Shown: in pieces, positions 1 through 50,073 of the stretch | Layout of the letters: each line of letters opens with the position of its first letter | Numbering within the stretch: the first letter of the stretch is position 1 | DNA from: an uncultured Thermoplasmatales archaeon | Lineage (GTDB): Archaea; Thermoplasmatota; E2; UBA202; DSCA01 | NCBI GenBank assembly: GCA_964414415.1 | Contig: CAYPWJ010000002.1 | Coordinates: 53,300 to 108,315, forward strand | Direction: 5' to 3' | Length of the DNA: 55,016 nt | Translations under genes and position numbers: made by a program | The notes under the pieces: generated by a model | Database searches by the model: none | The model's input: only the letters and a program-made list of their open reading frames with translations | Told to the model about the DNA's origin: nothing

Positions 1-1250
1 TTCCTCAAAGGAAGATGCACCTACCGAGGACGTTGATGTAACCGTCACCGACAACAACGTAACAGGAAATGAAAACACAACAACGGGTATTCGAGTCCAG
101 GCCGGTGGCTGTAGCTATGAGTATGATGAAAGTATTACGCTTGGAGAAGTAATCATTGAGAACAACAACGTCACCGGAATCGGTTATAGCGAAGGAGATG
201 ATGGTGGTCATGGAGTCCGTGTACATTCGGGCTATTATACCCGTATAGAATCAGTGAAAATTGATAACAACAACGTTTCAGGAGAAAAAGATACTGAAGG
301 ACATGGAATCCGAGTTCACTCGGCTGAGGAGAGTCTTGGCGTCGGCAGTGTAGGCATAACCAACAACGTGGTTGAATATCCTGGGTGCCAGGGAATCAGG
401 GTGCATTTGCACAAAAATTCCTCAAAGGAAGATGCACCTACCGAGGACGTTGATGTAACCGTCACCGACAACGAAGTAATAGGTAATGAATATACGAAAA
501 CAGGTATTCGAGTTCAGGCCGGTGGCCATAAATATGATTACGATGAGAGTATTATGCTTGGAGAAGTGATTATCGAGAACAATAACGTCACCGGAATCGG
601 TTATAGCTCAGAATCTGAGGGTGGTCATGGTGTCCGTGTACATTCGGGCTATTATACCCGCATAGAGTCGGTGAAAATTGATAACAACACCGTTTCAGGA
701 AATAAAGATACTGGAGGACATGGAATCTGGGTTCACTCAGGTTATAAGAGCTTTGGTGTCGGCAGCGTAGATGTTACTGACAACAAAGTTGAATATCCTG
801 GTTGTCAGGGAATTAGAGTGCATTTGCATGGAAATTCCACAGAGGAAGGAGTAACCATCACAGACAACAACGTAACAGGAGATGACTTCACAACTAAAGG
901 AATTAGAGTTGATACTTCCGCTGGTGTGTCAGGTCACAATATTACGTTGGAAGAAGTAGTTGTTGAAAATAACATAGTCACCGAAATCAATGGTAGCGGA
1001 CATACAGTATTAGGGATTCGTGTCCATGCAGGCGGTTCGGGTGAGGCTACCCATATGAAAGATGTTAGTGTAATAGGCAACGAGGTTACCGATGGTGCTG
1101 GAGAAGGAATCCGCGTCCAGACAGGAGGTAGGGACGAGAAAATAAGCACAATGGGGAGAGTAGTCGTAAAAAACAACGCTGTGACTGACAATGAAGACCG
1201 AGGTATTCGTGTTCACGCAGGAGCAGGAGGAGTAGGAGCAGGAGAAGGAT
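1..1250 (+). repeat. Intragenic tandem repeat, unit about 417 bp (139 aa). Copies at 1-417 (partial) and 418-834 are about 85-90% identical, and a more degenerate third copy follows.
   Basis: Exact 55-nt identity between nt 1-55 and 418-472. Protein repeats SVKIDNN(N/T)VSG..GHGIRVHS..VEYPGCQGIRVHLH.. Confidence 0.8.
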
Positions 1251-3373
1251 ACGGGGACTCCGGTACACCTACTGGTTCTAGTATCGATACGGCAATTGTT
1301 GAAGGTAACATTGTTATTGATAATGGTGTTATTGGACTTCGGGTCAGTGCAGGTGATAAAGCCAATGTTGACACGGCAACTATCGAAGACAACTACGTCG
1401 AAGGACACGAGGTAGGAATCTGGGACCGTGCCTGTGGCGAAGGCATCATTAAATCGTTGACCATCGATGAAAACCAAGTCAAGAGAAATACCGAATACGG
1501 TATTTTGCTCGATGACGGATCATGGCCATGTCCCAGAAGCGGTAGGACAAACCCTAGCGGTACTATAGAAAGCGTTGACGTCACAGAAAACACAATTGAA
1601 GATAATGGGGCTGGTGTTTGTGTCTTTGATATAATAAACGATGGAGACACTGAATCAGCAGTCACAATCAGCTACAACAACATTAGCAACAACACCTGGG
1701 GCATTCAGGTGCAGGAGACCTGTGAGGACGACATCGTTGACAACGAGTTCTGGTACAACGGCGGAGGCAGTGGAGGAACGGGGATCGCGCAAGAAAACGG
1801 TGGCGGCAATGGCGGCGCAATCCATCTCTATAAGGCTAACGACACCTATATCTCCGGAAACAACATGACGTACAACTATAACGGCATAGTGATGGAGGAC
1901 TGCGAGGACAACCTGGTGGAGGACAACGACATACACCAAACCCTGCCCGACGCATCGGGAGAAAATATTGGGGTTGTGATAATGGGGGGCGAGTCCTTCA
2001 ATGTCATCCAGCACAACAACGTCTCCGGCTATACTGACGGGATAGCTCTGGTAAACACGGGTCACGAGGAGGTGAGATACAACAACGTCTCCCAGAACGA
2101 CAACGGCATATACCTCTCTGGCTCTGATTACAACAACGTCACCGGTAACGACGTCCACGACAATGACGGCGACGGCATCTATCTCGATCAATCAGATTTC
2201 AACAACCTTACGGCAAACAATGTCTGGGGCAATGACGCGGGAATCTATATCCGGTCACACTCCAACTATAACAACCTTACGGCAAACAACGCCTGGGGCA
2301 ATGGTAAGGGCATCTATATGAGGTTTTACTCACACTACAACAATTTGACCGAAAACTATGCGGCTGACAACGACTACGGCATCTACCTCAAGGGACATAG
2401 CGTGGGCTCGGGCGATGGGCCTACCAATACCACCATACGCGACTGCACTGCCTCCAGCAACGCCATCTATGACTTCTACGCCACCAACTACACCGTCAAC
2501 ACCACCGTCACCAACCTCACCATGAGCAGCTACCCGACATCAGTTGATTTCACCTACGGCGACGGCATAGCGTTGAAGGGCGTGGATGAAAGCCAGGTGG
2601 AGCCATTCGACCAGCATGCGCCGCTCTATCGCTACGTCAACGTCACCAACGTCACCGAAACCTCCTGGATCAACGTCAGCATCCACTACACAGATGGAGA
2701 CCTTACCTACACCAGCGAGGACACACTGGACATGTACGAGTACACTGCATCAGGGTGGGCATCGGTAGGTGGAACCTGCGACGATGCCAACGACCAGGTT
2801 TGGGCGAACCTTTCCTCGTTCAGCATCTACGGCCTCTTCGGCGACATCACGCAGCTGAACCTGTCGCTCTACGAGGGATGGAACATGGTCTCGGTGCCCT
2901 GCAACCAGAGCCTGAACACCGCCGGGGAGCTCGCCGAGCTGGTCAACGGCGAGAGCGAGGGCGTGTGCACCGTCATCACCAGGTGGGACACCGCCAAGCA
3001 GCGGTACGTCAGCTACATCCCGGGCTCCGGCGAGGGCTTCGCCCTGTCCAACGGCACCGGCTACTTCGTCTACGTCACGGCTGATGTCAACGTGAACATC
3101 ACCGGTGACATCGTCACGCCGGACGTCGACCTGTCGCTCGAGGAGGGCTTCAACCTCGTCGGGTGGCCGTATCCCTACGACGCAGAGGCCAGCGACATCG
3201 CCGGCGACATCGACAACTGCGTCAAGGTCTCCATGTTCAACGGGTCGACGCAGACATGGATGGCCGAGTACATCGCGGCGGTGTCTGGAACGTCGTACGA
3301 CTTCGACGTGTTGATGGCCGACGGCGTGTTCGTCTTCGTCAACCCGGGACCGTCTGGCTGGCAGCCGAGATAG
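2..3373 (+). CDS. 5'-truncated giant secreted beta-helix (PbH1/NosD-like) surface protein, paralog 1. N-terminal part is built from about 139-aa tandem repeats. C-terminal about 560 aa are homologous to paralog 2.
   Basis: The frame stays open from window start, and the first 55 nt repeat exactly at 418. Repeated motifs GIRVH/NNVTG/NLTGN (parallel beta-helix repeat, dense N-x-S/T sequons). C-terminal bipartite module (EGWNMVSVP...GYFVYV / EGFNLVGWP...GVFVFVNPGPSGWQPR) shared with the next two genes. Confidence 0.8.
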   Translation, partial: SSKEDAPTEDVDVTVTDNNVTGNENTTTGIRVQAGGCSYEYDESITLGEVIIENNNVTGIGYSEGDDGGHGVRVHSGYYTRIESVKIDNNNVSGEKDTEGHGIRVHSAEESLGVGSVGITNNVVEYPGCQGIRVHLHKNSSKEDAPTEDVDVTVTDNEVIGNEYTKTGIRVQAGGHKYDYDESIMLGEVIIENNNVTGIGYSSESEGGHGVRVHSGYYTRIESVKIDNNTVSGNKDTGGHGIWVHSGYKSFGVGSVDVTDNKVEYPGCQGIRVHLHGNSTEEGVTITDNNVTGDDFTTKGIRVDTSAGVSGHNITLEEVVVENNIVTEINGSGHTVLGIRVHAGGSGEATHMKDVSVIGNEVTDGAGEGIRVQTGGRDEKISTMGRVVVKNNAVTDNEDRGIRVHAGAGGVGAGEGYGDSGTPTGSSIDTAIVEGNIVIDNGVIGLRVSAGDKANVDTATIEDNYVEGHEVGIWDRACGEGIIKSLTIDENQVKRNTEYGILLDDGSWPCPRSGRTNPSGTIESVDVTENTIEDNGAGVCVFDIINDGDTESAVTISYNNISNNTWGIQVQETCEDDIVDNEFWYNGGGSGGTGIAQENGGGNGGAIHLYKANDTYISGNNMTYNYNGIVMEDCEDNLVEDNDIHQTLPDASGENIGVVIMGGESFNVIQHNNVSGYTDGIALVNTGHEEVRYNNVSQNDNGIYLSGSDYNNVTGNDVHDNDGDGIYLDQSDFNNLTANNVWGNDAGIYIRSHSNYNNLTANNAWGNGKGIYMRFYSHYNNLTENYAADNDYGIYLKGHSVGSGDGPTNTTIRDCTASSNAIYDFYATNYTVNTTVTNLTMSSYPTSVDFTYGDGIALKGVDESQVEPFDQHAPLYRYVNVTNVTETSWINVSIHYTDGDLTYTSEDTLDMYEYTASGWASVGGTCDDANDQVWANLSSFSIYGLFGDITQLNLSLYEGWNMVSVPCNQSLNTAGELAELVNGESEGVCTVITRWDTAKQRYVSYIPGSGEGFALSNGTGYFVYVTADVNVNITGDIVTPDVDLSLEEGFNLVGWPYPYDAEASDIAGDIDNCVKVSMFNGSTQTWMAEYIAAVSGTSYDFDVLMADGVFVFVNPGPSGWQPR

Positions 3374-3403
3374 TCCTTCTTTATTTCTCCTCTCGTCTCT
3401 CCT
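3374..3403 (+). terminator. Pyrimidine (CT)-rich tract immediately downstream of paralog 1 stop. Putative archaeal terminator element.
   Basis: tccttctttatttctcctctcgtctctcct directly after the TAG stop. Analogous tracts follow paralogs 2 and 3. Confidence 0.35.
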
Positions 3404-3514
3404 GGATGCCCTGCCGCCTGTGGCGGCGTAGCCTGGGCTGTCGTCGCTGTCTGGCCATCCTGCTTTGTTAGCCATACCCTTTGAATGATTGCTCGCTGCT
3501 GCAGGCATTAAAAA

Positions 3515-3536
3515 TTTTAGACAAATATTTATACCA
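3515..3536 (+). promoter_or_regulatory. Putative BRE/TATA promoter of paralog 2 (TTTTAGACAAATATTTATACCA), about 65 nt upstream of the ATG. A GGAGG RBS sits about 10 nt upstream of the ATG.
   Basis: 22-mer conserved (19/22) upstream of paralog 3 (9223-9244). The core (A/G)TATTTATACC recurs upstream of the F390-synthetase-like gene (about 31922). Confidence 0.55.
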
Positions 3537-3600
3537 TGGGCTTATTATAACGTAATTCCATAAACCATGGAGATATATAGGATATAGGAGGAATAAAACC

Positions 3601-6600
3601 ATGAAACGAGCAACACATATTTTAGCGATAGCAGGAGCGGTGGCGGTGGCGGCCCTGGCAGTGATGGCGTTCGGCGCAGCGCAGGCAGACGCGGTCGGAG
3701 CAGACATCTCATCCTATGAGGGACCTGCCCCGGGAGATGTTGACGTGGTTGTCGATCCAACCACCACTACGAACCCGGATTATATAATGGAGGCGGTCCT
3801 GCCGATGACTCATACGTTCGGAACCGACGCTGCGGTAACGAGAGACTACGATGTAGGTGCAGATAAAGCTACGTTCAATATAAGCGGTTTAGCTGGAGAC
3901 TCAGGAGCGATTTTCTTCGATAACGACAGCGACGGGATAGCTGATTTCCAGCTCGGATTCCGAGATACAGATCATTCCGGAGGGCCCGCAGCAACTGTTT
4001 GGGTAAATCAGGGAGGAACATGGACAGAGGATACTGCATTCAGAAGCCTGACTGATTCTGATAGTGACGGCGTATACGAGTTTGGAGCCAATCCTATAAC
4101 GTCAGGTGGGAGACTTGGCACAATGCCGGATGTTTTCGATGGTGAAATCGCTAGTGATTATATTTTCATCGAGGTAGAGGAATCCGCCCTCGACTGTGAC
4201 TTCAAGTACGGAATCAGGGACCCTGCTGGAGATAACTACAATTTCGATGTCAGCACCAGTGGATGGGATTTTGACGCTACCAACGATATCGTCACAGGCA
4301 GCACCGTCCCGACAGGTAAAGGCATAAACACTGTCGGTGTAAATCCTGGCACCTATACAGAGCAGGTCACTATAGACAAGTCATTGACGCTGGTTTCCAT
4401 GGAAGGGCCTGAGGAGACGGAGATATCGTTGACAGAGAAGATGAATATCGGAGCCGACGATGTGACTGTTAAGGGATTCAATATAACCCGGGAAAGCGAC
4501 ATTAACATTATATACTTAACTGGGGCTGATGCTACAGTCGAGTGGAACATCTTTGAAGGCACAATCGATGGTTATGCGATAAGATTGGAAGGCCCCCCTG
4601 CCAACGGAGCTAAGATAGTGAACAATAAGTTTATTGGGACTAGGCATGCTGTTATGGATGCAGGTGCCAGCCAGGTCGGGATTGAAAATAATACAATTAT
4701 AGGCACGGGCGTGACAGGTGTACTGATAACGGACGGGACAGGAGGAACCGCGGCTAACGTTGACAATGTCAAAATAAAATACAATCTTTTCGAGAACATC
4801 GAAGGCGAGGATGTTTTCTCAGCAGTCGGTGTTTACGTAGGAGCGGGTAAAACGATAGACGGCCCCGGTATAGAAGTCAACTATAATCATTTCATTAACA
4901 ATAAGATGGGTGTTTATGCTTTAGAAGATACAGGCGATTTGGTGGACAAGGTTGACGCCACCTGCAACTGGTGGGGTGATGCATCCGGGCCGAACCATAC
5001 GAGCAACCCGCTTGGAAGCGGTGATAATGTCAGTGACAAGGTTGAATTTGTCCCGTGGCTCAATGCAACCTATCCTGATGGAGAGTGTATCGGTGGTACA
5101 TGCAAGACAGATATATGGGTTGACAACGACTATGACAGCTCTACACCGGGCTGGAACATAGACCATTTCGCAACCATACAGGACGGCGTGGACAGAGTTT
5201 GCGACGGTGGCACGGTCCACGTTGCAGCGGGAGCCTACAATGCGTCACTTCTCATAGATAAACCTCTAACATTGCAAGGAGCCGGAGCATCTCAGACCAT
5301 TATAAATGGATCCTCTAGTACTAAAGCTATGAAATTGCTTATAGAGGTGTACGGTAATCTTACTGTTGATGGATTCACTATCAATGCATCTGAAATCTGG
5401 GGAACAGTCTACGGTAGAGATGAACCATCTCTGCACGATGATAACCCAGGTCAATGGAACTTTACGAACAATACATTTGAACTGGGGACAATGTATTTTG
5501 ATCATACGGACGCCGATATAAAAATCTGTAACAACACGTTCAATACAACATGGGAGGCGGTTGGCACAGAGGAATGCACTGGAGCAATGGAAATCGGCCA
5601 TAACAAGATGAATTACGTTGATGACGATAATGAGGGCAATCCCGGACTCATCAAAATCTCTAACTGGCCTAAATACTGGGAAAACAGCAGCGGGAGTTTC
5701 CTTATACCGAACAATGCCACCGCCAAACAATGGATACACAACAATACCATGAACTGCAATGGTGCCATCGGGATAACGTATCATAGCTATCCTTCTGCCG
5801 AAAATTGGCAATCTTGGGGAGGCCCACAGGTTGTCGACAGTGCTGCCGTATTTAGCGATGTTGTCATAGAAAACAACGAAATCTCCGGCGTTGGCGATCT
5901 CAATGCTGCCGCCTATCCTGGCGTCTTTAATGAGTCTCCCTATCCTAACGCTGGCATTTTGTTAAAGAGAAATGGCAGTGGCACCGGGTTTGAAGACACA
6001 GTTATTTCCAGCAATACCATCACGGCAGATGCTGGCGCCGCCGAGGTGAACCAGGGAATCCATCTATCTGGAAACTGTACCGATACAACAATCACTGAAA
6101 ACTCGATAACGGGCTTCGACAATGCTGTCTACCTCAACACCACCACTGGCGAATACCCCTCCAGTACAGCAATTCATTACAACAATTTCGGTGGCAATAC
6201 CTACGGCGTCTACACCGAGGACCCCATCAATATGACCGACGCCACCTGCAACTGGTGGGGTCATCCATCCGGGCCGAACCACACTGACAATCCGTCCAAA
6301 GACCATGGGATAGGTGACAACGTGAGCGACAACGTCGACTTCTCGCCGTGGCTCAACGCGCCATATCCCGGCGGCAAAGCCATCGACTACTGGAACCCCA
6401 CCTCTGTTGATGGCGAGGCAGACATTGACGAAAAAGCGAACGCAGACACCACGGTAAATATCACGACTACCGAAGAGCAAAACGTCACCGTGCAGAACTA
6501 CGTGGGCGACCCCGAGCCCGGTGCAGGATCACCGCAGGGCATCGGCCCGATCGGCAAATACGTCGACGTGGCCGTCGAAAACGAAACGGCGGTTGAATGG

Positions 6601-9168
6601 CCCGTCAACATCACCATCTACTACACGCAGGCGGACCTCGACGCGGCTGGCATCCCCGAGACGTCATTGACAGAGATGCTCTACTACGACGAGACATCCG
6701 GTGAGTGGGAGGCATACAACGACACCGGCGTCAACACCGCAAACACCGACGGATACGAGGGCTACGTCTGGGCGAACGCCTGGAACGGCTACCAGCTCTC
6801 GCCGAAGGCACCGAGCGGCTTGATGGACGTCTGGGTCGACGACGATGCAGACCCGGGGTGGTATGACGCCGCGCATGTCAGGACCATCAAGGAGGGCATC
6901 GACAACGTCACCGCGGGCGGCACCGTCCACGTCTGGGACGGTACGTACCATGAGGAGAACATTTTCGTCAACAAGTCTATCAGCATCATCGGCAACACCT
7001 CTGTTGATGCCCGGAACAAGGCCGTTGAACTGAACACCAATGTTAGCTACACAGATAAGGGCTTCATCGTCCAGGCGGACCACGTCAACATATCGGGCTT
7101 CAACATCACCAACTGGGGTGGCATATATCCCTGCGGCGGCGTGCTCGTCAATCATTCCAGCCGCTGCAACATCTCAGGGAATGTCATGGCGGGTGACTAC
7201 GACGGTGTCAAACTCAACGCATCAGATGAAAACGTTGTCTATAACAATATCATCCTGGAATCCACGTATGGTGTCTGGATGGCCAACGGAAGCAGCCACA
7301 ACGTCATCGATTCGAACTTTATCAGAGACACACAGATTGGCATACTATATTACACCGAGGAACCTGCCTGCTGGAACACCATCGTCGGTAACAACATATC
7401 CCACAACCTCCTCTGGGGCATAGCTATGGAGTATACCTATCAGGATGAGATCATCGACAACGAGTTCTGGTACAACGGCGGAGGCAGTGGAGAAATGGTG
7501 ATTGCGCAAGAAAACGGTGGCAGCAATGGCGGCGCAATAGGCCTCCGGGGGGCCAACGACACCTACATTGGAGGAAACACCATGCGGTACAATTATCACG
7601 GCGTAGTGATGGACACTTGCGAGGACAACCTGGTGGAGTCCAACGACATCCAACAAACGCTGCCCGGTTGGAATCCCTCTGACCCATTGGAGGGAGATCC
7701 TCCTCCAATTGGCGTTATGATTGTGGAGGGCCGCTCCTATAACGTCATCCAGCATAACAACGTCTCCAGCTATCCTATTGGAATAGCTCTGGTGGGCACG
7801 ACTCACGAGAAGGTGAGATACAACGACATCTCTGCCAATGGATACGGCGTGAGCTTGGGTGGCACTGTTTTCAGCAACATCACTGGAAACGAGATATACA
7901 GCAACGCCGGATACGGCGTGCGCCTTGACAGCTCTGGTTACAACAACCTGACTGGGAACGAGATATACGACAACACCGACGACGGCATATATTTCCATAG
8001 CTCCCGTTACAACAATATCACTGGAAACGCCATCTGGGGCAACGACAACCGGGGAATCAATCTGTTGGACTCTCCCTGCAACAACCTGACCGGCAATTAC
8101 ATCTGGAACAATGCCGATGAAGGCGTCTACCTCGATTATCGGTCCAGCTACAACAACCTCACCGAGAACTACGTCGCCGACAACAGCCACGGCATCTACC
8201 TCGAGGGCTCCTCGGGTACGCTCCTCGAGAACACCACGGTACGCGACTGCGTCGCATCCGGCAACGCCATCTATGACTTCTACGCCACCGACTACACCGT
8301 CAACACCACCGTCACCAATCTCACCGTGTCGAGCTACCCGACGCCAGTCGATGTCGCCTACGGCGGCACCGTTGCGGTGAAGGGCGTCGACGAGAGCGAG
8401 ATAACGCCGTACGACGAGCACGCGCCGCTCAACCGCTACGTCAACGTCACCGGCAGCTCCTGGGTCAACATCAGCATCCACTACACAGATGGAGACCTCA
8501 CCTACACCAGCGAGGACACCCTGGGAATGTACGAGTATACCGGAACCAGCTGGTCAGAGGTGACGACAGCGGACCATTACCCGGATGACAACTATCTACA
8601 GGTGAACATCTCCTCGTTCAGCATCTACGGCCTGTTCGGCGACATCACGCAGCTGAACCTGTCGCTCTACGAGGGATGGAACATGGTCTCGGTGCCCTGC
8701 AACCAGAGCCTGAACACCGCCGGGGAGCTCGCCGAGCTGGTCAACGGCGAGAGCGAGGGCGTGTGCACCGTCATCACCAGGTGGGACACCGCCAAGCAGC
8801 GGTACGTCAGCTACATCCCGGGCTCCGGCGAGGGCTTCGCCCTGTCCAACGGCACCGGCTACTTCGTCTACGTCACGGCTGATGTCAACGTGAACATCAC
8901 CGGTGACATCGTCACGCCGGACGTCGACCTGTCGCTCGAGGAGGGCTTCAACCTCGTCGGGTGGCCGTATCCCTACGACGCAGAGGCCAGCGACATCGCC
9001 GGCGGCATCGACAACTGCGTCAAGGTCTCAAAGTTCAACGCGTCGACGCAGACGTGGCTGCCCGAGTACGTGCCAGGGCTCCCCGCCTCCAACGACTTCG
9101 CCGTCCGGATGGGCGAGGGCGTGTTCGTCTTCGTCAACCCGGGACCGTCTGGCTGGCAGCCCAGGTAA
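3601..9168 (+). CDS. Giant secreted beta-helix surface protein, paralog 2 (1855 aa). Has a signal peptide, PbH1 repeats, two CNWWG...GP...PWLNA modules, and the shared C-terminal bipartite module.
   Basis: N-terminus MKRATHILAIAGAVAVAALAVMAFGAAQADA (signal peptide). Repeats NNxxxGN / GIxL. Two copies of the motif ATCNWWG(D/H)xSGPNHT..GDNVSD.V.F.PWLNA. Last about 540 nt identical to 2830-3373. Confidence 0.9.
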   Translation: MKRATHILAIAGAVAVAALAVMAFGAAQADAVGADISSYEGPAPGDVDVVVDPTTTTNPDYIMEAVLPMTHTFGTDAAVTRDYDVGADKATFNISGLAGDSGAIFFDNDSDGIADFQLGFRDTDHSGGPAATVWVNQGGTWTEDTAFRSLTDSDSDGVYEFGANPITSGGRLGTMPDVFDGEIASDYIFIEVEESALDCDFKYGIRDPAGDNYNFDVSTSGWDFDATNDIVTGSTVPTGKGINTVGVNPGTYTEQVTIDKSLTLVSMEGPEETEISLTEKMNIGADDVTVKGFNITRESDINIIYLTGADATVEWNIFEGTIDGYAIRLEGPPANGAKIVNNKFIGTRHAVMDAGASQVGIENNTIIGTGVTGVLITDGTGGTAANVDNVKIKYNLFENIEGEDVFSAVGVYVGAGKTIDGPGIEVNYNHFINNKMGVYALEDTGDLVDKVDATCNWWGDASGPNHTSNPLGSGDNVSDKVEFVPWLNATYPDGECIGGTCKTDIWVDNDYDSSTPGWNIDHFATIQDGVDRVCDGGTVHVAAGAYNASLLIDKPLTLQGAGASQTIINGSSSTKAMKLLIEVYGNLTVDGFTINASEIWGTVYGRDEPSLHDDNPGQWNFTNNTFELGTMYFDHTDADIKICNNTFNTTWEAVGTEECTGAMEIGHNKMNYVDDDNEGNPGLIKISNWPKYWENSSGSFLIPNNATAKQWIHNNTMNCNGAIGITYHSYPSAENWQSWGGPQVVDSAAVFSDVVIENNEISGVGDLNAAAYPGVFNESPYPNAGILLKRNGSGTGFEDTVISSNTITADAGAAEVNQGIHLSGNCTDTTITENSITGFDNAVYLNTTTGEYPSSTAIHYNNFGGNTYGVYTEDPINMTDATCNWWGHPSGPNHTDNPSKDHGIGDNVSDNVDFSPWLNAPYPGGKAIDYWNPTSVDGEADIDEKANADTTVNITTTEEQNVTVQNYVGDPEPGAGSPQGIGPIGKYVDVAVENETAVEWPVNITIYYTQADLDAAGIPETSLTEMLYYDETSGEWEAYNDTGVNTANTDGYEGYVWANAWNGYQLSPKAPSGLMDVWVDDDADPGWYDAAHVRTIKEGIDNVTAGGTVHVWDGTYHEENIFVNKSISIIGNTSVDARNKAVELNTNVSYTDKGFIVQADHVNISGFNITNWGGIYPCGGVLVNHSSRCNISGNVMAGDYDGVKLNASDENVVYNNIILESTYGVWMANGSSHNVIDSNFIRDTQIGILYYTEEPACWNTIVGNNISHNLLWGIAMEYTYQDEIIDNEFWYNGGGSGEMVIAQENGGSNGGAIGLRGANDTYIGGNTMRYNYHGVVMDTCEDNLVESNDIQQTLPGWNPSDPLEGDPPPIGVMIVEGRSYNVIQHNNVSSYPIGIALVGTTHEKVRYNDISANGYGVSLGGTVFSNITGNEIYSNAGYGVRLDSSGYNNLTGNEIYDNTDDGIYFHSSRYNNITGNAIWGNDNRGINLLDSPCNNLTGNYIWNNADEGVYLDYRSSYNNLTENYVADNSHGIYLEGSSGTLLENTTVRDCVASGNAIYDFYATDYTVNTTVTNLTVSSYPTPVDVAYGGTVAVKGVDESEITPYDEHAPLNRYVNVTGSSWVNISIHYTDGDLTYTSEDTLGMYEYTGTSWSEVTTADHYPDDNYLQVNISSFSIYGLFGDITQLNLSLYEGWNMVSVPCNQSLNTAGELAELVNGESEGVCTVITRWDTAKQRYVSYIPGSGEGFALSNGTGYFVYVTADVNVNITGDIVTPDVDLSLEEGFNLVGWPYPYDAEASDIAGGIDNCVKVSKFNASTQTWLPEYVPGLPASNDFAVRMGEGVFVFVNPGPSGWQPR

Positions 9169-9213
9169 CCCCTTTCTCTCCCTTTTCCCTTCTTTTTCTA
9201 TCCTGTTTTTTTG
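9169..9213 (+). terminator. Pyrimidine-rich tract downstream of the paralog 2 stop (putative terminator).
   Basis: cccctttctctcccttttcccttctttttctatcctgttttttt. It ends in an oligo-T run, which is typical of archaeal termination. Confidence 0.4.
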
Positions 9214-9222
9214 CGCCGGATA

Positions 9223-9244
9223 TTTTAGATAAGTATTTATACAA
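9223..9244 (+). promoter_or_regulatory. Putative BRE/TATA promoter of paralog 3 (TTTTAGATAAGTATTTATACAA), about 47 nt upstream of the ATG. The RBS is GGAAGGAGG.
   Basis: Near-identical to the element at 3515-3536. Confidence 0.55.
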
Positions 9245-9290
9245 ATGACGGTTATCTTTTTTACTCCAACAGAGGAAGGAGGCACGGATT

Positions 9291-12200
9291 ATGAAAGCAA
9301 GACATGCATATATTCTTGGAATTGTAGGGATAGTCGCGTTTGTCGGATTCATGTCGATGAACGCCGACGCAAACGGGACAGATGTCATCTATGAGGAGGA
9401 CTTCGAGGATAGCTGTCCGCCATCCGGCTGGACGATCGGCGAGAAGCCTGCAAACGGCGATACATGGGCCTGTAGCACCGTTTTGCCGGGCATCTGTGTT
9501 CAGGGGGGCGCCAGTGGTACCTTTATGGCGTTTGACGATGACGATTACGGCCCGGGCAGCGACAATCCACAGGAGTGGCTTGTTTCGCCTGCTGTCAACT
9601 GTGGTAACTACGAGAATATAGCCCTGTCGTGGACCGGAGACTTCCAGGACTTCGCCGGTCACGGCGAATTCTGGGTGAACGTCTCCAACGATGCCGGCGT
9701 GACGTGGACAAACGTCTATCATGCAGACATGGATGTCGGGGGGTTTGACACTGACTCAGCCATCCCGGTGGATATCTCCGCCGTGGCCGACCATTCCAGC
9801 CATGTCATGGTCAATTTTACCTACAGCGATACAGATTCCACGGGGACTTCAGACAATGCGTGGGGGGCGCTGGTTGACGACGTCACCCTGACGGGAACAC
9901 CGACGGGGTTTGTCTATATCGACGAAAACCACAACGGCTCGTATGACGACGGCGAGTGGCACGGCGTCTTCATTGCCGATGCGGTGGACAACGCCGAACG
10001 CGGCGACACCATCTACGTCTGGAACGGCAGCTACTGGGAGACCAACATCACCATCGACATGCCGCTGACTGTCATCGGGAACACGTCCGTCGACGCTCTC
10101 GCAGGCATCGACATGCCGCGGACCACGTACCTGAACTATACCGACAAGGGCTTCATCATCAACGATACAAGCCACGTCAACATCTCCGGCTTCTACCTTG
10201 TAAACAAAGGGAGGATGGAGATGTGCGGCGGCGTAAGCCTGAACCACTCCAGCCACTGCAACATCTCCGGCAACATCATCATGGGTGACGCGGACGGCAT
10301 CTACCTCAACGACTCGCACTACAACACCATATATAACAACTTCATCTATGACAACAATTTTGTGGGTATCTGGATGGTTGGGTCCAGCAACAACACCATC
10401 GAGATGAACAATCTCACCGGCAATTACTACGGCATCCTCTACGAGCCGTACGAGGCCATGCAGCTCAAGTTTTCTTGGAACACCATCCGGCACAACAACA
10501 TCTCATATAATGGCGGGTGGGGGATTGTCATGCGCGGCACAGACAACGAGACCATCGAATATAACGATTTTTACGGCAACGGCCTGGATGGCGGGGGCGC
10601 CATCCATTTCATTGGCGTCAACGACGGCATCATTGCTCACAACACCATGATGTACAACTACCCGTGGGGCGTCTGGCTGGAGCACTGCGAAGAGGTCACC
10701 GTTGAAGATAACACCATCCTGGGGGGAGAGACCGTAAACGACAATGGAAACGCACACACCTACCACGTCTATCTAAAGGAATCTGAGGGATGGCATCTCC
10801 ACGACGAGGTGCATTTCTCCCATCGATACGGCCGAGAAGTAATTGATCTGCCGCTTCCCGACGTCGACGGCGAATACAAGGTGCGTATATCCCAGTCTGG
10901 CGGAACGGCGGCTCACATCGACTACGTGGCGCTGCTCGACGGCGGGGAGACGCCGCCCGCCGGTGCTTCATACGTGGACGGTGGGGACATCCTCCAGAAA
11001 GTCGTGGCTGCGGACAACGACGTCGCCGACGCCTGGGGGAAGACCATCGAGCTTTCGTGGGATGGAACGTTTACGTCGACTCGCCTCGTCCTGGTGGCCA
11101 ACGAGGAGCAGCCGATACCTGAGATTCCCCATCGGACGCCGTCGGTCATGTTTCCGTCGTTCATGGAGCCCTACCGGATAGAGGAGACGGGCGCTGTCGA
11201 CGTCGACGGAACCCTCGATGACCTGGGGGATGCGGATTTCCGGGCATACTGGATCCCGACGACCGGTCATCCCCGCGGGTACACGTACGTCTGGCTTCGC
11301 TCCGACGGCGAGTACCTCTCCGGCGCGATGGAGGTCACCGGGGACAACACCTACGATGACACGGGATGGGGCTCGCTGTACATCGCGACTGGCCGCGAGG
11401 TGCAGGAGTTCCGCGTCACCGCCACCGATCATGCTTACGGCGTCGACTCCTTCGTCTACACCGATGCCGTCGGATGGCAGCACATGCTCTACGAGTTCCG
11501 GATCCCGCTGGACGAGATCGGGGCAGCAATCGGCGACACTGTCCGCGTGGGCTACGGCAGCTACGGTACCTTTGGGCCAATGACAGGCCCGACTGGGGTC
11601 TACATTAGCAACGGCATGTACCTTCCGCCCAACACTGACGAATGCTTCAACACGCTGGAGGACAACACCATATCCGGCCATGACTACGGCGTCCTTCTTT
11701 CAGGCACGGACAACGAGACACTCGCCGGCAACACGATAACCTATAACTTTGAGGCTGGTGTCTACTCGATGTATAGCGAAAACATCTCCATCATAGACCA
11801 CAACAATTTTTCTCATAATGGACCGGTGTCAGGATGGGAGTACCATACTGGCGGCGTTGTTTTCGAACATACGCATCACAGCGACGTCGCCGGCAACTTT
11901 TTCACCGACAACAGGGGAGGTGCCATCAATTTCATTGCTTCCCGGCACAACGACATCATCGACAACGACATCATCGAAAACTGCGGCTGGCTGCACGGGA
12001 TAGGGATAATAGAGAACGCAAACCATACCTACATCGCCACAAATAATATACGAGACAACACAGGGCCGGGGATAGAAATCTTGCATACGGGATACACCCG
12101 GGTAGAGGACAACAACATCACCGGCAACGCATTTGCTGGCATATACATGTATCGCGCTCCATATACCGACATCAACCGCAATTTCATCGCAGACAACATA

Positions 12201-13079
12201 GACGGCGAAAGCGGCATACATATCGGGAAGGAGTCAAATCACTCCAGCATCACGAACAACACCATCAAGGCCAACGGCGTCGGCATCTACATCAACGGTG
12301 GACCAAACACCACTGGCTATTATTGGAACGTCGATACACAGATACACTGGAACCAGATATACGACAACACGGAATACGGCCTCTGGTACGAGATGTCCAC
12401 CGGCGGGACGACGCCCTACGTCAACGCGACGTGGAACTGGTGGGGTGCCGCCAACGGCCCGAGCAGCGACAGCGGCAACATGCAGGACCCCGTCACCAAT
12501 ACGTATGCCACCGGGTCCGGCGACGAGATCAACGGCAGCGCCGCATACGCCAACATCCACTTCGACCCCTGGATGGGCCTCTATCTCTACCAGGGCTGGA
12601 ACATGGTCTCCCCGGGCTTCATCCCCGAGGTGGGCACAGCCGGTGACCTGGCAGACCTGATCGGCGACAACTGCACCGTCATCACCAGGTGGGACAGCGA
12701 CAAGCAGCGCTACGTCAGCTACATCCCGGGCTCCGGCGCGGGTTTCACGCTGCGTGACGGCGAAGGCTACTTCGTCTACGTCACCCACGACACCAACGTA
12801 CAGTTCACCGGCGGCCTCGCATCGCCGAGCATCGACCTGACGTTGAGCGACGGGTTCAACCTGGTCGGATGGCCCGACGTTGGCTACCGGCAGGCCAGCT
12901 GGTTCGCCGGCCAGATCGACAACGCCGTCAAGGTGTCCATGTATGACGCTGAGACGCAGACGTGGCTGCCCGAGTACATCGCCGCGCTGCCCATCTCCAA
13001 CGACTTCGACGTGCTGATGGGCGACGGCGTCTTCGTGTTCGTCAACCCGGGACCGTCGAACTTGGGCGGGGGAGCGTAG
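9291..13079 (+). CDS. Giant secreted beta-helix surface protein, paralog 3 (1262 aa). Has a signal peptide, an N-terminal choice-of-anchor-J/MAM-like domain, PbH1 repeats, one NWWG module, and a divergent copy of the shared C-terminal module.
   Basis: N-terminus MKARHAYILGIVGIVAFVGFMSMNADA. YEEDFEDSCPPSGWTIGE..GDTWA. Repeats NISGN/NLTGN/NNITGN. TWNWWGAANGPSS. C-terminus QGWNMVSPG...GYFVYV...GFNLVGWP...GVFVFVNPGPS. Confidence 0.9.
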   Translation: MKARHAYILGIVGIVAFVGFMSMNADANGTDVIYEEDFEDSCPPSGWTIGEKPANGDTWACSTVLPGICVQGGASGTFMAFDDDDYGPGSDNPQEWLVSPAVNCGNYENIALSWTGDFQDFAGHGEFWVNVSNDAGVTWTNVYHADMDVGGFDTDSAIPVDISAVADHSSHVMVNFTYSDTDSTGTSDNAWGALVDDVTLTGTPTGFVYIDENHNGSYDDGEWHGVFIADAVDNAERGDTIYVWNGSYWETNITIDMPLTVIGNTSVDALAGIDMPRTTYLNYTDKGFIINDTSHVNISGFYLVNKGRMEMCGGVSLNHSSHCNISGNIIMGDADGIYLNDSHYNTIYNNFIYDNNFVGIWMVGSSNNTIEMNNLTGNYYGILYEPYEAMQLKFSWNTIRHNNISYNGGWGIVMRGTDNETIEYNDFYGNGLDGGGAIHFIGVNDGIIAHNTMMYNYPWGVWLEHCEEVTVEDNTILGGETVNDNGNAHTYHVYLKESEGWHLHDEVHFSHRYGREVIDLPLPDVDGEYKVRISQSGGTAAHIDYVALLDGGETPPAGASYVDGGDILQKVVAADNDVADAWGKTIELSWDGTFTSTRLVLVANEEQPIPEIPHRTPSVMFPSFMEPYRIEETGAVDVDGTLDDLGDADFRAYWIPTTGHPRGYTYVWLRSDGEYLSGAMEVTGDNTYDDTGWGSLYIATGREVQEFRVTATDHAYGVDSFVYTDAVGWQHMLYEFRIPLDEIGAAIGDTVRVGYGSYGTFGPMTGPTGVYISNGMYLPPNTDECFNTLEDNTISGHDYGVLLSGTDNETLAGNTITYNFEAGVYSMYSENISIIDHNNFSHNGPVSGWEYHTGGVVFEHTHHSDVAGNFFTDNRGGAINFIASRHNDIIDNDIIENCGWLHGIGIIENANHTYIATNNIRDNTGPGIEILHTGYTRVEDNNITGNAFAGIYMYRAPYTDINRNFIADNIDGESGIHIGKESNHSSITNNTIKANGVGIYINGGPNTTGYYWNVDTQIHWNQIYDNTEYGLWYEMSTGGTTPYVNATWNWWGAANGPSSDSGNMQDPVTNTYATGSGDEINGSAAYANIHFDPWMGLYLYQGWNMVSPGFIPEVGTAGDLADLIGDNCTVITRWDSDKQRYVSYIPGSGAGFTLRDGEGYFVYVTHDTNVQFTGGLASPSIDLTLSDGFNLVGWPDVGYRQASWFAGQIDNAVKVSMYDAETQTWLPEYIAALPISNDFDVLMGDGVFVFVNPGPSNLGGGA

Positions 13080-30471: not shown

Positions 30472-30545
30472 GGGCTCTTGGTCTAGCTGGTTATGACGTC
30501 GCCTTGACATGGCGGAGGTCCTGGGTTCAAACCCCAGAGAGCCCA
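30472..30545 (+). tRNA. tRNA-Val (anticodon GAC).
   Basis: Cloverleaf: acceptor GGGCTCT/AGAGCCC, anticodon stem CGCC-loop TTGACAT-GGCG, T-arm CTGGG TTCAAAC CCCAG, discriminator A. Coordinates +/-1. Confidence 0.8.
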
Positions 30546-30553
30546 CTCATCCG

Positions 30554-30638
30554 GCAGGGGTAGCCAAGCCAGGTTAACGGCGCAGCGTTCAGGGCGCTGT
30601 CCTGCAGAGGTCCAAGGGTTCAAATCCCTTCCCCTGCA
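30554..30638 (+). tRNA. tRNA-Leu (anticodon CAG), class II with a long variable arm.
   Basis: Acceptor GCAGGGG/CCCCTGC, anticodon stem CAGCG-loop TTCAGGG-CGCTG, long variable arm TCCTGCAGAGGTCC, T-arm AAGGG TTCAAAT CCCTT. Coordinates +/-1. Confidence 0.8.
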
Positions 30639-36725: not shown

Positions 36726-39700
36726 ATGAAACTCATGAAGCGCTTCGGCTGGATGCTGTCACTTTTCGTCGCCGCTCTCTTGCTTTCAACTCCATTGTTT
36801 TCGCTTGCCAACGACGTGCAGGAGGTGCCATCCGGGTTCACTGGCGCCTCCTGGAACCGCGTCGTTCCCATAAACAAGGCCACCCTGGTGCAGCACGACG
36901 AGAACAGCTACCTTGACGACCTCGCCTACATGGCAGCCATTCCGTCGAGCGTGTTCTACGACCACAACACCGACAAGCTGTATTCCAATCCATTACTCTT
37001 CTACGAGGAGGGGCAGGAGCTCGACCGGAAGAACCGGACGCTCAACGCCCATCAGAGCCTCGAATACTTCATGGAGGACTGGCAGACCTACACCGGCGGC
37101 GTCAAGAAGATAGAGACCATAAACATGGGCGACACGGAGCCGTGGAAGGCGAAAAACTACACCCACATCAACGGACAGGACCCCTATGATATTGCAGCGC
37201 AGATGGCCCTGCAGGACTGGTCATATGCCGACAGCGCCGTCGTGGCAACTCTCGGCGACATGGCTGGTGAGGACACCACCACCGAGGGCACTATCACCGG
37301 GAGCATGTCAGCTGAGTCCATCAAGCATATCAGCCAGACGGCGGTGAAGCAGGACTCCATCGCCCCGCAGTACAACGACTTCTACGTCCCCGACGACTAC
37401 AAATACGTCAAAGCCAACCTGACCTGGCCGTCGAAGAGCTGGCTGCCGACGCTCTCCTACCTCGCCACGCTGGGGTTGTTGCAGGGGGGCCTTACCATTC
37501 CCTCAGCTGACCCCGACCTGCATCTCTACTGCAACTACGATGGGCTCATGCAGGTCGCCTCATCCCAGAACTGGAACGTGATGGCCGGCGCCCAGGAGAG
37601 CTGCGAGAGCTACATCTACTCGTCCGGCAACTGGAAGTCATCGGTCGTCGACATCCCCACCAAGGGCCCGCTCGGCGAACGCCACGGGACCATCATGCAG
37701 CGCATCCGTGATATCATCACCGGCCAGGTGCACTACCTCATCGACATCTCACTCTACCCCGGCACAGAGATAGAGATACCCGAGCGGACGCCCTTCATGT
37801 GCCGGAATGTCTCCTTCGAGCTCAGCTGGAAGAGCGGCGGCCCGCTCGGACTCGTCATCGTCGACGAGAACAACGTCGCGGTCGGCGAGGCCGTCGCGAC
37901 CAACGTGTCAAAGCAGACGCTGGAGCTCGACCAGCTCGGCGAGGGTGACTACCGGGCCTGCATCGTGCAGCTCGGCAAGGCAGAGCGCGAGATATCCTAC
38001 ACCCTCGAGTATTCCTGGAAGCAGTCCATGCGGAAAGACAGCGCCAACTCGCTGATGAACGCCGCCGAGGGCGCCGTCCTGGCATCGCTCACCAACTCGC
38101 CGCTGCTTTACACGCCTGCCGGCAAGCTCTATGGAGACATCGAGAACGTGCTGACGACACTCGGCGTCGACCACGTCTACCACGTTGACGTCGGCAACCA
38201 GTCCGACGACGGCGTCACGCAGGGACTCCGAAGCATTTGCCCCATCAAAAAATCATACCATGCACTCGAGGAGCTCTACCACGACATCAGGGGCAGGAGC
38301 GAAGAGAACGACATCGTCTTCACCACCCTCGACCCCTGGACGACGTGGCGTGCGGAGGAACTCAAGCCCGCCGAAGAGCGGGACAAAGCCCTCTACATCG
38401 GCTCCGCTGCCTATCTGGCCGCGCATCACGGCGCCCCGCTCATGGCCGTCGACATGCACCCGCCGCTTTCCCGCGCCGTCGTCTGGCACACCGAATGGTG
38501 GAAGGAACACGCCGTCCGCGACGACGAGCCAAACGTCGGCGCTATGTATCTCACCAGCAAGGAGGCATATGACTTCCTCGACGAAATCGGCTTCGACCGG
38601 CCGGGAGAGCGGGAGAGCATTATAACGGTTGCAGGCCAGTTCGACATCGGTATCTCCTGGGACCGCGCGTTCGTGGGAGCCGCAACGCCCGGCCGGCTCA
38701 TCGGGACACCCGTCGACACGGCGCAGTGGGCGTCACGGAGCGCCTTCTATCCCGCCATGATCTATGCAAATCCCGCCGTCAGCCAGGAGACCGTAGAGCT
38801 CATCAACGGCAGCAGGAGCACCCGGCAGGCCAGCGGGCTCCTCAACATCCAGAAGCCCAGCCAGGAGGAGTCATTCCACGCGCCGGTGCTCGCCTCCTAC
38901 ATGACCTACGCGCACCGGTTCAACGAACGCGCCGGCAAATACTGGGACTTCCAGTACACCACCAATACGGGCATCACGCCGTTCTACCAGCCGTCGACCA
39001 ACCCCATCGACCAGGGCGTGCTGGCCGACTACGGCAAATACGGCTCCTATTATCCCGACCTCTCGGAGACGGAGGTCGTTCCCTTCTACCTCAAAAAAAG
39101 CGGCTACGAGATGGCCTACGCCACGAACTTCAGCGCCACAATGGAGGACCTCAACCGCGGCGTCGTCGCCTGGTTCGAGACCACCCATGGCTTCATGGAA
39201 AACTCCGGCAGCCTCGCCTTCTGGAATCCACACGGAGCGCCGGGCTTCTTCGGCGTCAACATGAGCCTGCCGACCATCGAGCCGAACCCGTGGCGCGGAT
39301 ACGAGGTCTATCTGCCGGGCCCGCTGGACGGCTCAACCGCGGAACCGGACGTGCTGTCGCAGAGCAAGCGCCTCGGTCTTGACATCGTCCCCGCCAAGCT
39401 CAAGGATCTCCCGTTGTCCGACCTCATCCCGCTGGTGCGCCGCGCCGGCTACGACGGCATCATCATATCGGTGCTGTTCGGCCGGCTGCGCACCAAGGAC
39501 TACACCGGCTACGAGATGGAGGAGGAGATGGAAAACCTGCACTCCATGGGATTCAACGCGCTGAGCTGCCTCATCTCGAACACCTACCTGCATCTCTCGC
39601 TCATCCGCCACGGCTGCGTCTGGCAGGTCATCGACCCCTGGGAGACATCGTGGTATTCAGCGTTCGCCAGCGAGATGTTCGCCCGCGACCTCGCCCTGGG

Positions 39701-40025
39701 CAAAGACGTCGGTCAGGCCTACACCAACAGCATCCTCCACACCGGCATCGGGTATCTGACGAAGCAGTGGTGGTGGGACATCAAGGAAAACCTCTGCTAC
39801 TTCGGCGACCCCGACCTCTCGATGTGGTCGCCCAAACACGGCTGGGATAAACCCGAATCGCTGGACAGCGGCACCGTCCACGGCCACGCGCCGTTCGGCG
39901 CCACCGAGTACCCCCAACAAAAGGAGGAAGGCGGCTTTTCCATGATCATCGGCGTCGCCCTCGTCATCGTCGTCGCAGCAGCGGGTGCCTACCTCGGCTG
40001 GAAGTACCGGCAGCGGACGAGCTAA
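36726..40025 (+). CDS. Large secreted protein (1099 aa) with an N-terminal signal peptide and a C-terminal TM anchor plus basic tail. Function unknown.
   Basis: MKLMKRFGWMLSLFVAALLLSTPLFSLA (signal peptide). C-terminus FSMIIGVALVIVVAAAGAYLGWKYRQRTS. Internal ETTHGF / NPHGAPG / ALSCL motifs of unknown meaning. Confidence 0.7.
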   Translation: MKLMKRFGWMLSLFVAALLLSTPLFSLANDVQEVPSGFTGASWNRVVPINKATLVQHDENSYLDDLAYMAAIPSSVFYDHNTDKLYSNPLLFYEEGQELDRKNRTLNAHQSLEYFMEDWQTYTGGVKKIETINMGDTEPWKAKNYTHINGQDPYDIAAQMALQDWSYADSAVVATLGDMAGEDTTTEGTITGSMSAESIKHISQTAVKQDSIAPQYNDFYVPDDYKYVKANLTWPSKSWLPTLSYLATLGLLQGGLTIPSADPDLHLYCNYDGLMQVASSQNWNVMAGAQESCESYIYSSGNWKSSVVDIPTKGPLGERHGTIMQRIRDIITGQVHYLIDISLYPGTEIEIPERTPFMCRNVSFELSWKSGGPLGLVIVDENNVAVGEAVATNVSKQTLELDQLGEGDYRACIVQLGKAEREISYTLEYSWKQSMRKDSANSLMNAAEGAVLASLTNSPLLYTPAGKLYGDIENVLTTLGVDHVYHVDVGNQSDDGVTQGLRSICPIKKSYHALEELYHDIRGRSEENDIVFTTLDPWTTWRAEELKPAEERDKALYIGSAAYLAAHHGAPLMAVDMHPPLSRAVVWHTEWWKEHAVRDDEPNVGAMYLTSKEAYDFLDEIGFDRPGERESIITVAGQFDIGISWDRAFVGAATPGRLIGTPVDTAQWASRSAFYPAMIYANPAVSQETVELINGSRSTRQASGLLNIQKPSQEESFHAPVLASYMTYAHRFNERAGKYWDFQYTTNTGITPFYQPSTNPIDQGVLADYGKYGSYYPDLSETEVVPFYLKKSGYEMAYATNFSATMEDLNRGVVAWFETTHGFMENSGSLAFWNPHGAPGFFGVNMSLPTIEPNPWRGYEVYLPGPLDGSTAEPDVLSQSKRLGLDIVPAKLKDLPLSDLIPLVRRAGYDGIIISVLFGRLRTKDYTGYEMEEEMENLHSMGFNALSCLISNTYLHLSLIRHGCVWQVIDPWETSWYSAFASEMFARDLALGKDVGQAYTNSILHTGIGYLTKQWWWDIKENLCYFGDPDLSMWSPKHGWDKPESLDSGTVHGHAPFGATEYPQQKEEGGFSMIIGVALVIVVAAAGAYLGWKYRQRTS

Positions 40026-49888: not shown

Positions 49889-50073
49889 ACAGCTATCCTG
49901 CTCTCGTCGTTATCCCGGAGCTGTTTTGACCGATGTTTTACCTCGATGAAGGGCTCCTCTGCTCCCACATCGGGTTAACCGGGTGAGGCACTAGGTGGTA
50001 TCCGTCAGAACATGAAAACCTGATATCCAAATGTATTTAACTTTCGTTAATATTAGGGTAGCAGGGATTGACA

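Follow-up and report, generated by a model that had tools for sequence, protein, structure and literature searches.

The known means by which archaea retain secreted proteins are transmembrane (TM) helices, lipoboxes, and archaeosortase signals, and archaeosortase with its PGF-CTERM signal is the known archaeal C-terminal anchoring route (PMC6098224). Other folded terminal domains are familiar from secreted proteins. Dockerin type I (PF00404) is a short, internally duplicated, and usually C-terminal domain that mediates non-covalent docking and is carried by many unrelated secreted enzymes of one organism. The C-terminal domain (CTD) of the type IX secretion system (T9SS) of Bacteroidota (Por_Secre_tail, TIGR04183) is a folded, β-rich domain that forms the extreme C-terminus of a variety of secreted cargo proteins, C25 gingipain-type peptidases among them. 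The GW modules of Listeria InlB and Ami and the SLH domains of bacterial S-layer proteins, which are tandem repeats of ~55-80 amino acids (aa) at the protein end, hold secreted proteins non-covalently on the envelope of the producer via a wall polymer. We know of no folded, non-covalent C-terminal retention module described for Thermoplasmatota. Here we analyze a 55,016-nt stretch from an uncultured Thermoplasmatales archaeon (assembly GCA_964414415.1, contig CAYPWJ010000002.1, positions 53,300 to 108,315; hereafter the window), in which three giant secreted proteins end in a ~170-aa module composed of two homologous ~80-aa repeats. The module almost certainly represents a real and unannotated domain family, and it may be a cell-surface retention or docking module.

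The three giant genes are co-oriented on the + strand and stand in tandem in the left 13 kb of the window, and the module is at the C-terminal end of each encoded protein. By tblastn (E 1e-61 to 1e-125), exactly three module copies and nothing else were found, at ~2852-3370, 8650-9165, and 12570-13076, and a hidden Markov model (HMM) scan of all six-frame open reading frames (ORFs) agrees on this number. Copy 1 consists of repeat A at 2852-3121 and repeat B at 3122-3370, which ends in VFVFVNPGPSGWQPR; copy 2 of repeat A at 8650-8919 and repeat B at 8920-9165; and copy 3 of repeat A at 12570-12827 and repeat B at 12828-13076, which ends in VFVFVNPGPSNLGGGA, all on the + strand. The repeats were delimited by translation, tblastn, half-versus-half comparison, and the HMM scan, together with hhalign for copy 1 and AlphaFold for copy 3, for which the modeled sequence starts at 12543. 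A first-pass annotation, made from the DNA letters and their ORF translations, had proposed that all three giant proteins end in two tandem related half-modules, each opening with (E/Q)G(W/F)N(M/L)V(S/G) and closing with G(Y/V)FV(Y/F)V. This is borne out by the translations of the three long + strand ORFs, where both motifs are present; repeat A compared with repeat B scores 6-11 standard deviations above shuffles (z=6-11, single sequences), and the two half profiles align in hhalign with a probability of 99.85% (E=1e-30, 74 columns). The position it gave, 2860-3373, does hold a module but covers only copy 1 of the three, and the PGPS that it took for the end is near the end rather than at it, because the proteins run on for 6-7 residues (PGPSGWQPR-stop and PGPSNLGGGA-stop) and PGPS is conserved only in close relatives.

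Scored against an HMM of 34 family sequences, the window copies give E values of ~1e-59 to 1e-65 and end 3-7 residues ahead of the stop codon. They possess the features that define the family: a twin repeat, a GWN-type opening, a GxGxFV closing (G-x-G-(Y/F)-F-V), an extracellular location, and usually the extreme C-terminal position. Most conserved positions of the module hold Gly or an aromatic or hydrophobic residue. When 1.84 billion representatives of clusters at 50% identity were searched exhaustively with an HMMER profile, 2190 proteins passed E≤1e-3; of these, 541 reached E≤1e-10 and 36 reached E≤1e-30, so the module is by no means limited to the three window genes, a restriction that would have spoken against the first-pass annotation. 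By word-indexed homology search, 2 and 22 matches were all that was retrieved, a gross underestimate of the family relative to the exhaustive profile search. The window modules have no match in Pfam-A (2025 copy) or NCBIfam r20, and 34 diverse modules gave no consistent match to any Pfam family and likewise none to PHROGs; Pfam matches in full-length members fall only outside the module. Profile searches of PDB sequences gave nothing significant, and full-text searches of the literature found no description of this domain. The statement of the first-pass annotation that the module could not be assigned to a named family therefore stands, as no Pfam, NCBIfam, or PDB entry recognizes it.

The AlphaFold2 model obtained from the 34-sequence alignment has a predicted local distance difference test (pLDDT) score of 93.2 and a predicted template modeling score (pTM) of 0.86, with all five models at 91 or above; a model built from 5 sequences reached a pLDDT of 63 and was set aside. 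Each predicted repeat is formed by a β hairpin bearing the GWN, one helix, and then four strands. The earlier description of the halves as β-sandwich-like is correct in that they are mostly β, but it does not accommodate the α helix predicted in each half (2 strands, 1 helix, 4 strands). Because the pTM is high, the two repeats would pack as one rigid unit, and the module is predicted to be an autonomously folding, compact, pseudo-symmetric unit of two repeats. Foldseek comparison with 350,542 chains gave no match at E≤1e-3, with TM-scores of at most 0.24, and we conclude that the predicted fold has no solved relative. The profile checks against Pfam and PDB and the structure prediction, which had been suggested with the first-pass annotation, thus produced no known domain and a confident model. 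Only one fold match with E<1e-3 was found anywhere, to BFVD entry A0A8D9C8P8, which comes from an uncultured marine phage and is named a "putative hemin binding protein" (E=6.6e-4, TMq 0.57, 14% identity), with no sequence relatives in viral contigs or phage genomes; viral-contig scans, tblastn against phage genomes, and PHROGs revealed no viral relatives of the module. The resemblance to small α/β domains of the RCK_C/TrkA_C-like type is one of fold only and is weak: one repeat on its own can be superposed on several RCK_C, HPr, or YAM domains at 2.3-3.3 Å over ~60-65 residues, and these domains likewise act as dimers.

Domain architectures were counted in the best 151 of the 2190 representatives, and signal peptides and TM helices in 96 members of at least 400 aa. 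The module ends no more than 15 residues from the C-terminus in 134 of the 151, and ~90% of members have exactly one repeat pair, in terminal position; in ~10% the repeats directly follow the signal peptide or are internal, and some members possess three or more repeat units. Host proteins are ~150 to 5867 aa long, and their passengers are mutually unrelated, including Beta_helix/NosD, PKD, Peptidase_C25 (gingipain type), Peptidase_M28, S8 subtilase, and FG-GAP domains, InlB B-repeats plus dockerin, OmpL47-type barrels, and SBBP propellers. Signal-like N-termini are found in 71 of the 96 long members and a C-terminal TM helix in only one. None of the window proteins has a TM helix in its last 35 aa, and there is neither a PGF motif nor an NCBIfam match, in agreement with the earlier view that no C-terminal TM helix is present and that the module is not a PGF-CTERM or other archaeosortase signal; a covalent-anchor signal is absent from module proteins. 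A terminal feature found family-wide is a Trp whose median distance to the C-terminal end is 4 residues, with W-x-G in 95 of 122 members, and the gene 3 protein of the window is without it. A subfamily outside the window (P0018, P0032, P0034, P0036, and P0041) has a conserved extra tail, W-x-G-G-R-x-x-L-x-L-P-P-P, which could be a second terminal signal.

Two members depart from the usual arrangement. In P0056, the module is at 476-638 and a separate dockerin match is C-terminal, at 1114-1163. The 823-aa protein P0031, encoded outside the window, has a signal peptide, at least three module repeats at 35-347, and then a C-terminal TM helix with a basic tail, and it may be a membrane-anchored partner in docking between modules. 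Every named source of the family is archaeal, mostly Thermoplasmatota: Thermoplasmata archaeon DRN21, two Thermoplasmatales metagenome-assembled genomes (MAGs), a Thermoplasmatota archaeon, Candidatus Altiarchaeales IMC4, and Thermofilum sp. ex4484_79. Some members may be bacterial, since there are few named sources among thousands of metagenomic proteins.

The evolutionary dynamics of the module differ from those of its passengers, and it is more conserved than they are. Module copies 1 and 2 are 90% identical, as against 67% for the last 605 aa of the gene 1 and gene 2 proteins; copy 3 shares 62% identity with each of the other copies, whereas the gene 3 protein has ~35% identity to the other two over ~520 aa. 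A 394-nt tract at 2813-3206 (+) differs by one mismatch from its partner at 8611-9004 (+), and the flanks are only 60-70% identical, which indicates recent gene conversion, centered on repeat A and extending into the first part of repeat B. In comparisons covering four genomes or contigs, modules of one genome are 59-94% identical to each other, and modules of different genomes 26-44%. In a Thermoplasmatales locus (L001), a protein whose first 950 aa match the gene 3 protein (44%) bears the module of its neighbor (94%) and not one like that of gene 3 (43%). A genome scan yielded 3 loci, and a metagenome scan with close alignment yielded 8 short contigs without usable context. Module genes are in tandem in all four loci with context, i.e., the window, L001, L002, and L005; L001 and the window show no synteny downstream of the giant genes. 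In two loci, L005 (6752-13410, ENA ERZ27252208) and L014, Peptidase_C25 genes adjoin module genes, one with the module and one without. Sugar-nucleotide epimerase or aminotransferase genes are found near module genes in two unrelated loci, and the epimerase genes near P0166 and in L005 are too weak an association to use.

The module shares with dockerin type I its internal duplication, its usually C-terminal position on many unrelated secreted proteins of one organism, and the pattern of being homogenized within species and divergent between species; non-covalent docking would be a further parallel. Dockerin differs in being a Ca-binding helical domain of ~60 aa, whereas the module has ~170 aa and is mostly β; the two have no sequence or fold relation, none of 34 module sequences matches PF00404, no cohesin-like partner was identified, and P0056 carries both the module and a true dockerin. 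The T9SS CTD resembles the module in its β-rich fold, extreme C-terminal position, and diversity of secreted cargo, but it is an ~80-aa single immunoglobulin-like (Ig-like) sandwich of Bacteroidota, whereas the module is a ~170-aa twin repeat, archaeal, and sometimes N-terminal; there is no Pfam or NCBIfam match to the CTD on the module and no PDB fold match, and the host belongs to Thermoplasmatota. With GW modules and SLH domains the module has in common the tandem repeats at the protein end, but it has no sequence or fold relationship to them; neither Pfam models nor fold place it among the SLH, GW, LysM, or CWB-type cell-wall binding repeats, and the Gly-Trp dipeptide at the start of each module repeat, as in GW modules, is coincidental. 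The PGF-CTERM signal of the archaeosortase A system of Euryarchaeota is, like the module, a C-terminal feature common to many archaeal surface glycoproteins of one genome, but it is a short signal in three parts (motif, TM helix, basic tail) that is removed by cleavage in exchange for a lipid, whereas the module is a folded 170-aa domain. The PGF-pre-PGF domain (TIGR04213) was considered for the ~120 aa ahead of the module and was discarded, as no NCBIfam family matched at E≤1 in the window at 2504-2860 or 8299-8655. An Ig-like spacer of the PKD, Big, CARDB, or FN3 type was rejected on passenger diversity and terminal placement; only single members match such families, at E ~0.07-0.09, each repeat has a helix, and a terminal single pair is found in ~90% of members.

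The reading that we favor, at a probability of roughly 0.45, is that the module is a non-covalent cell-surface retention or docking module. Anchoring is suggested by the signal peptides, by the placement of the module at the end of the chain, by the variety of its passengers, and by homogenization within genomes. A shared, cell-specific partner is suggested by the higher conservation of the module relative to the passenger, the conversion tract, the difference in identity within and between genomes, the module swap in L001, and the tandem genes. The proteins would be exported by the Sec pathway and their signal peptides cleaved, after which the C-terminal module would bind a cell-specific envelope component non-covalently and so retain its protein at the cell. 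Its ligand might be a receptor protein anchored in the membrane or else an envelope glycan or lipoglycan, and adhesin-like β-helix proteins and peptidases would thereby be displayed on the surface. By analogy, such a module would be a functional counterpart of dockerin, SLH, or GW modules with unrelated sequence and fold. Several observations weigh against retention. No receptor, ligand, or conserved neighbor gene was identified, and no structural analog supports any binding mode. The minority of members with the module after the signal peptide or internal, its position upstream of the dockerin in P0056, and the TM anchor that P0031 itself possesses mean that the module is not obligatorily an anchoring end, and a general binding domain would fit these members equally. 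The conserved Gly, aromatic, and hydrophobic positions may be purely structural, and recent tandem duplication plus recombination alone could account for the within-genome similarity. The interpretation of the first-pass annotation is thus supported in part: the domain is uncharacterized and extracellular, and anchoring is plausible.

If the module is a general binding domain, it could be a substrate- or ligand-binding module, either like a carbohydrate-binding module (CBM) or lectin or as an adhesive tip, that targets an external polymer or the surface of another cell and not the producer cell. The internal module of P0056 with its separate C-terminal dockerin is in the typical position of a CBM, the module of the TM-anchored P0031 is at the distal N-terminus, the passengers are hydrolase- or adhesin-like, and the conserved aromatics (W of GWN, W50, Y57, Y60, and Y76/F77) could make a glycan-binding platform. 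However, no Pfam CBM or lectin family matches the module and no solved CBM among the chains compared matches its fold, homogenization within genomes combined with 26-44% identity between genomes would be unexpected for a common environmental polymer, and the strict terminal single pair in ~90% of members also argues against this role, which we regard as possible though rather unlikely. The near identity of modules in co-encoded paralogs and the tandem genes would also be consistent with oligomerization or assembly, in which the pseudo-dimeric domain would pair with the repeats of paralogs or of a TM-anchored protein to build surface complexes or lattices. P0031, with N-terminal repeats and a C-terminal TM anchor, could be the membrane partner, and some proteins offer three or more repeat units; but this architecture is found in only 1 of 151 members, and the pTM of 0.86 shows that each repeat already has its partner within the same chain. 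We regard assembly as an unlikely role.

The extreme C-terminal position on diverse cargo that includes C25 gingipain-type peptidases, the conserved Trp near the end with its W-x-G, and the subfamily with the additional WxGGRxxLxLPPP tail would suit a folded C-terminal sorting tag, possibly cleaved, for a dedicated export or attachment machinery, as is the case for the T9SS CTD. To our knowledge, such machinery is not known in archaea; none was seen beside the module genes, the module also occurs in N-terminal and internal positions, it has no sequence or fold similarity to T9SS CTDs, and the gene 3 protein is without the terminal Trp, so a sorting tag is decidedly improbable. The least probable explanation, which we consider very hard to sustain, is an intramolecular chaperone or cap needed only for folding of a β-helix passenger. 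In the window and in the closest relatives, the module does directly follow β-helix regions, and one subgroup has a conserved junction motif, NWWG...(F/D)xPW, ahead of the module, but the same module stands after PKD, FG-GAP, and S8, M28, and C25 peptidase passengers without a β helix, and passenger diversity of this kind disfavors a chaperone.

Whatever its function, the module has a confident predicted fold without a solved relative and clearly merits consideration for an entry of its own in Pfam or InterPro; the domain family is new, and its functional category is a familiar one. The family tags upward of 2000 protein clusters, among them gingipain-type, subtilase, and M28 peptidases, which have been invoked to explain how sediment archaea degrade protein. 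Should the module be a surface anchor, it would explain the cell association of extracellular enzymes in these archaea, its HMM could be used to predict their surface proteome, and it could be used as a portable display tag. A more far-reaching and doubtful proposal is an undescribed archaeal system for surface display in which the module tags the cargo. It would be a dockerin- or CTD-like address domain, with a fold without a solved relative, that fits secreted cargo (peptidases and adhesin-like β-helix proteins) into a cognate, genome-specific receptor, either a P0031-like membrane-anchored protein with the same repeats or a lineage-specific envelope glycan. Sediment and subsurface Thermoplasmatota, as well as other archaea, would thereby form cell-bound complexes for degradation or adhesion.

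The window host is assigned to an uncultured Thermoplasmatota archaeon because its adenosylhomocysteinase is 89% identical to the protein of a "Thermoplasmatota archaeon" MAG and because the window encodes an archaeal-type primase small subunit (PriS); relatives of the giant proteins are located in Thermoplasmatales MAGs. Gene 1 (2-3373, +) encodes a giant secreted β-helix protein of at least 1123 aa, whose N-terminus is cut off by the left window edge, as the frame is open from base 2. Gene 2 (3601-9168, +) encodes a secreted β-helix protein of 1855 aa with a predicted Sec signal peptide at 3601-3687 (+), MKRATHILAIAGAVAVAALAVMAFGAAQA, for which the inferred cleavage site precedes a D. Gene 3 (9291-13079, +) encodes a secreted β-helix protein of 1262 aa with a predicted Sec signal peptide at 9291-9371 (+), MKARHAYILGIVGIVAFVGFMSMNADA, its cleavage site likewise inferred, and an identical protein is encoded on a Logan contig of run ERR5414699. 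Genes 2 and 3 were taken from the ORF list and, like gene 1, identified by translation and Pfam Beta_helix/NosD matches; the bodies of all three proteins consist of right-handed β-helix/NosD-type repeats (Pfam PF13229 and PF05048; NCBIfam TIGR03804). The giant proteins have 28-59 N-x-S/T sequons, 59 of them in the gene 2 protein, and are candidate extracellular glycoproteins. An unannotated motif, NWWG-x(3)-GP...(F/D)xPW, is encoded at 4966-5058 and 6250-6351, both inside gene 2, and at 12435-12572, immediately ahead of the gene 3 module; a (F/Y)DPWxG junction is common to 13 of 151 family members. The NWWG motif may be a β-helix capping element.

The AT-rich intergenic region upstream of gene 2 (window 3480-3600) contains a TTTATA-like box and a GGAGG directly before the ATG, which suggests that each giant gene may have a separate archaeal promoter. 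The G+C content per 2 kb is 0.47-0.58 in the giant-gene part of the window (1-13000) versus 0.60-0.69 in the housekeeping part (14000-50000), and the low G+C of the giant genes could be due to amino acid composition (N/T/I/Y-rich) or to foreign origin. A fourth giant secreted protein of at least 1648 aa, with a signal peptide, is encoded at 50062-55014 (+) and continues past the right window edge; it contains DUF11 repeats in 8 stretches (E=5e-70), and its C-terminus is outside the window. A 1099-aa ORF at 36726-40025 (+) is without a Pfam match at E≤1e-4, and an adjacent pair of tRNA genes is found at 30472-30545 and 30554-30638 (+) (Rfam RF00005, 62 and 48 bits).

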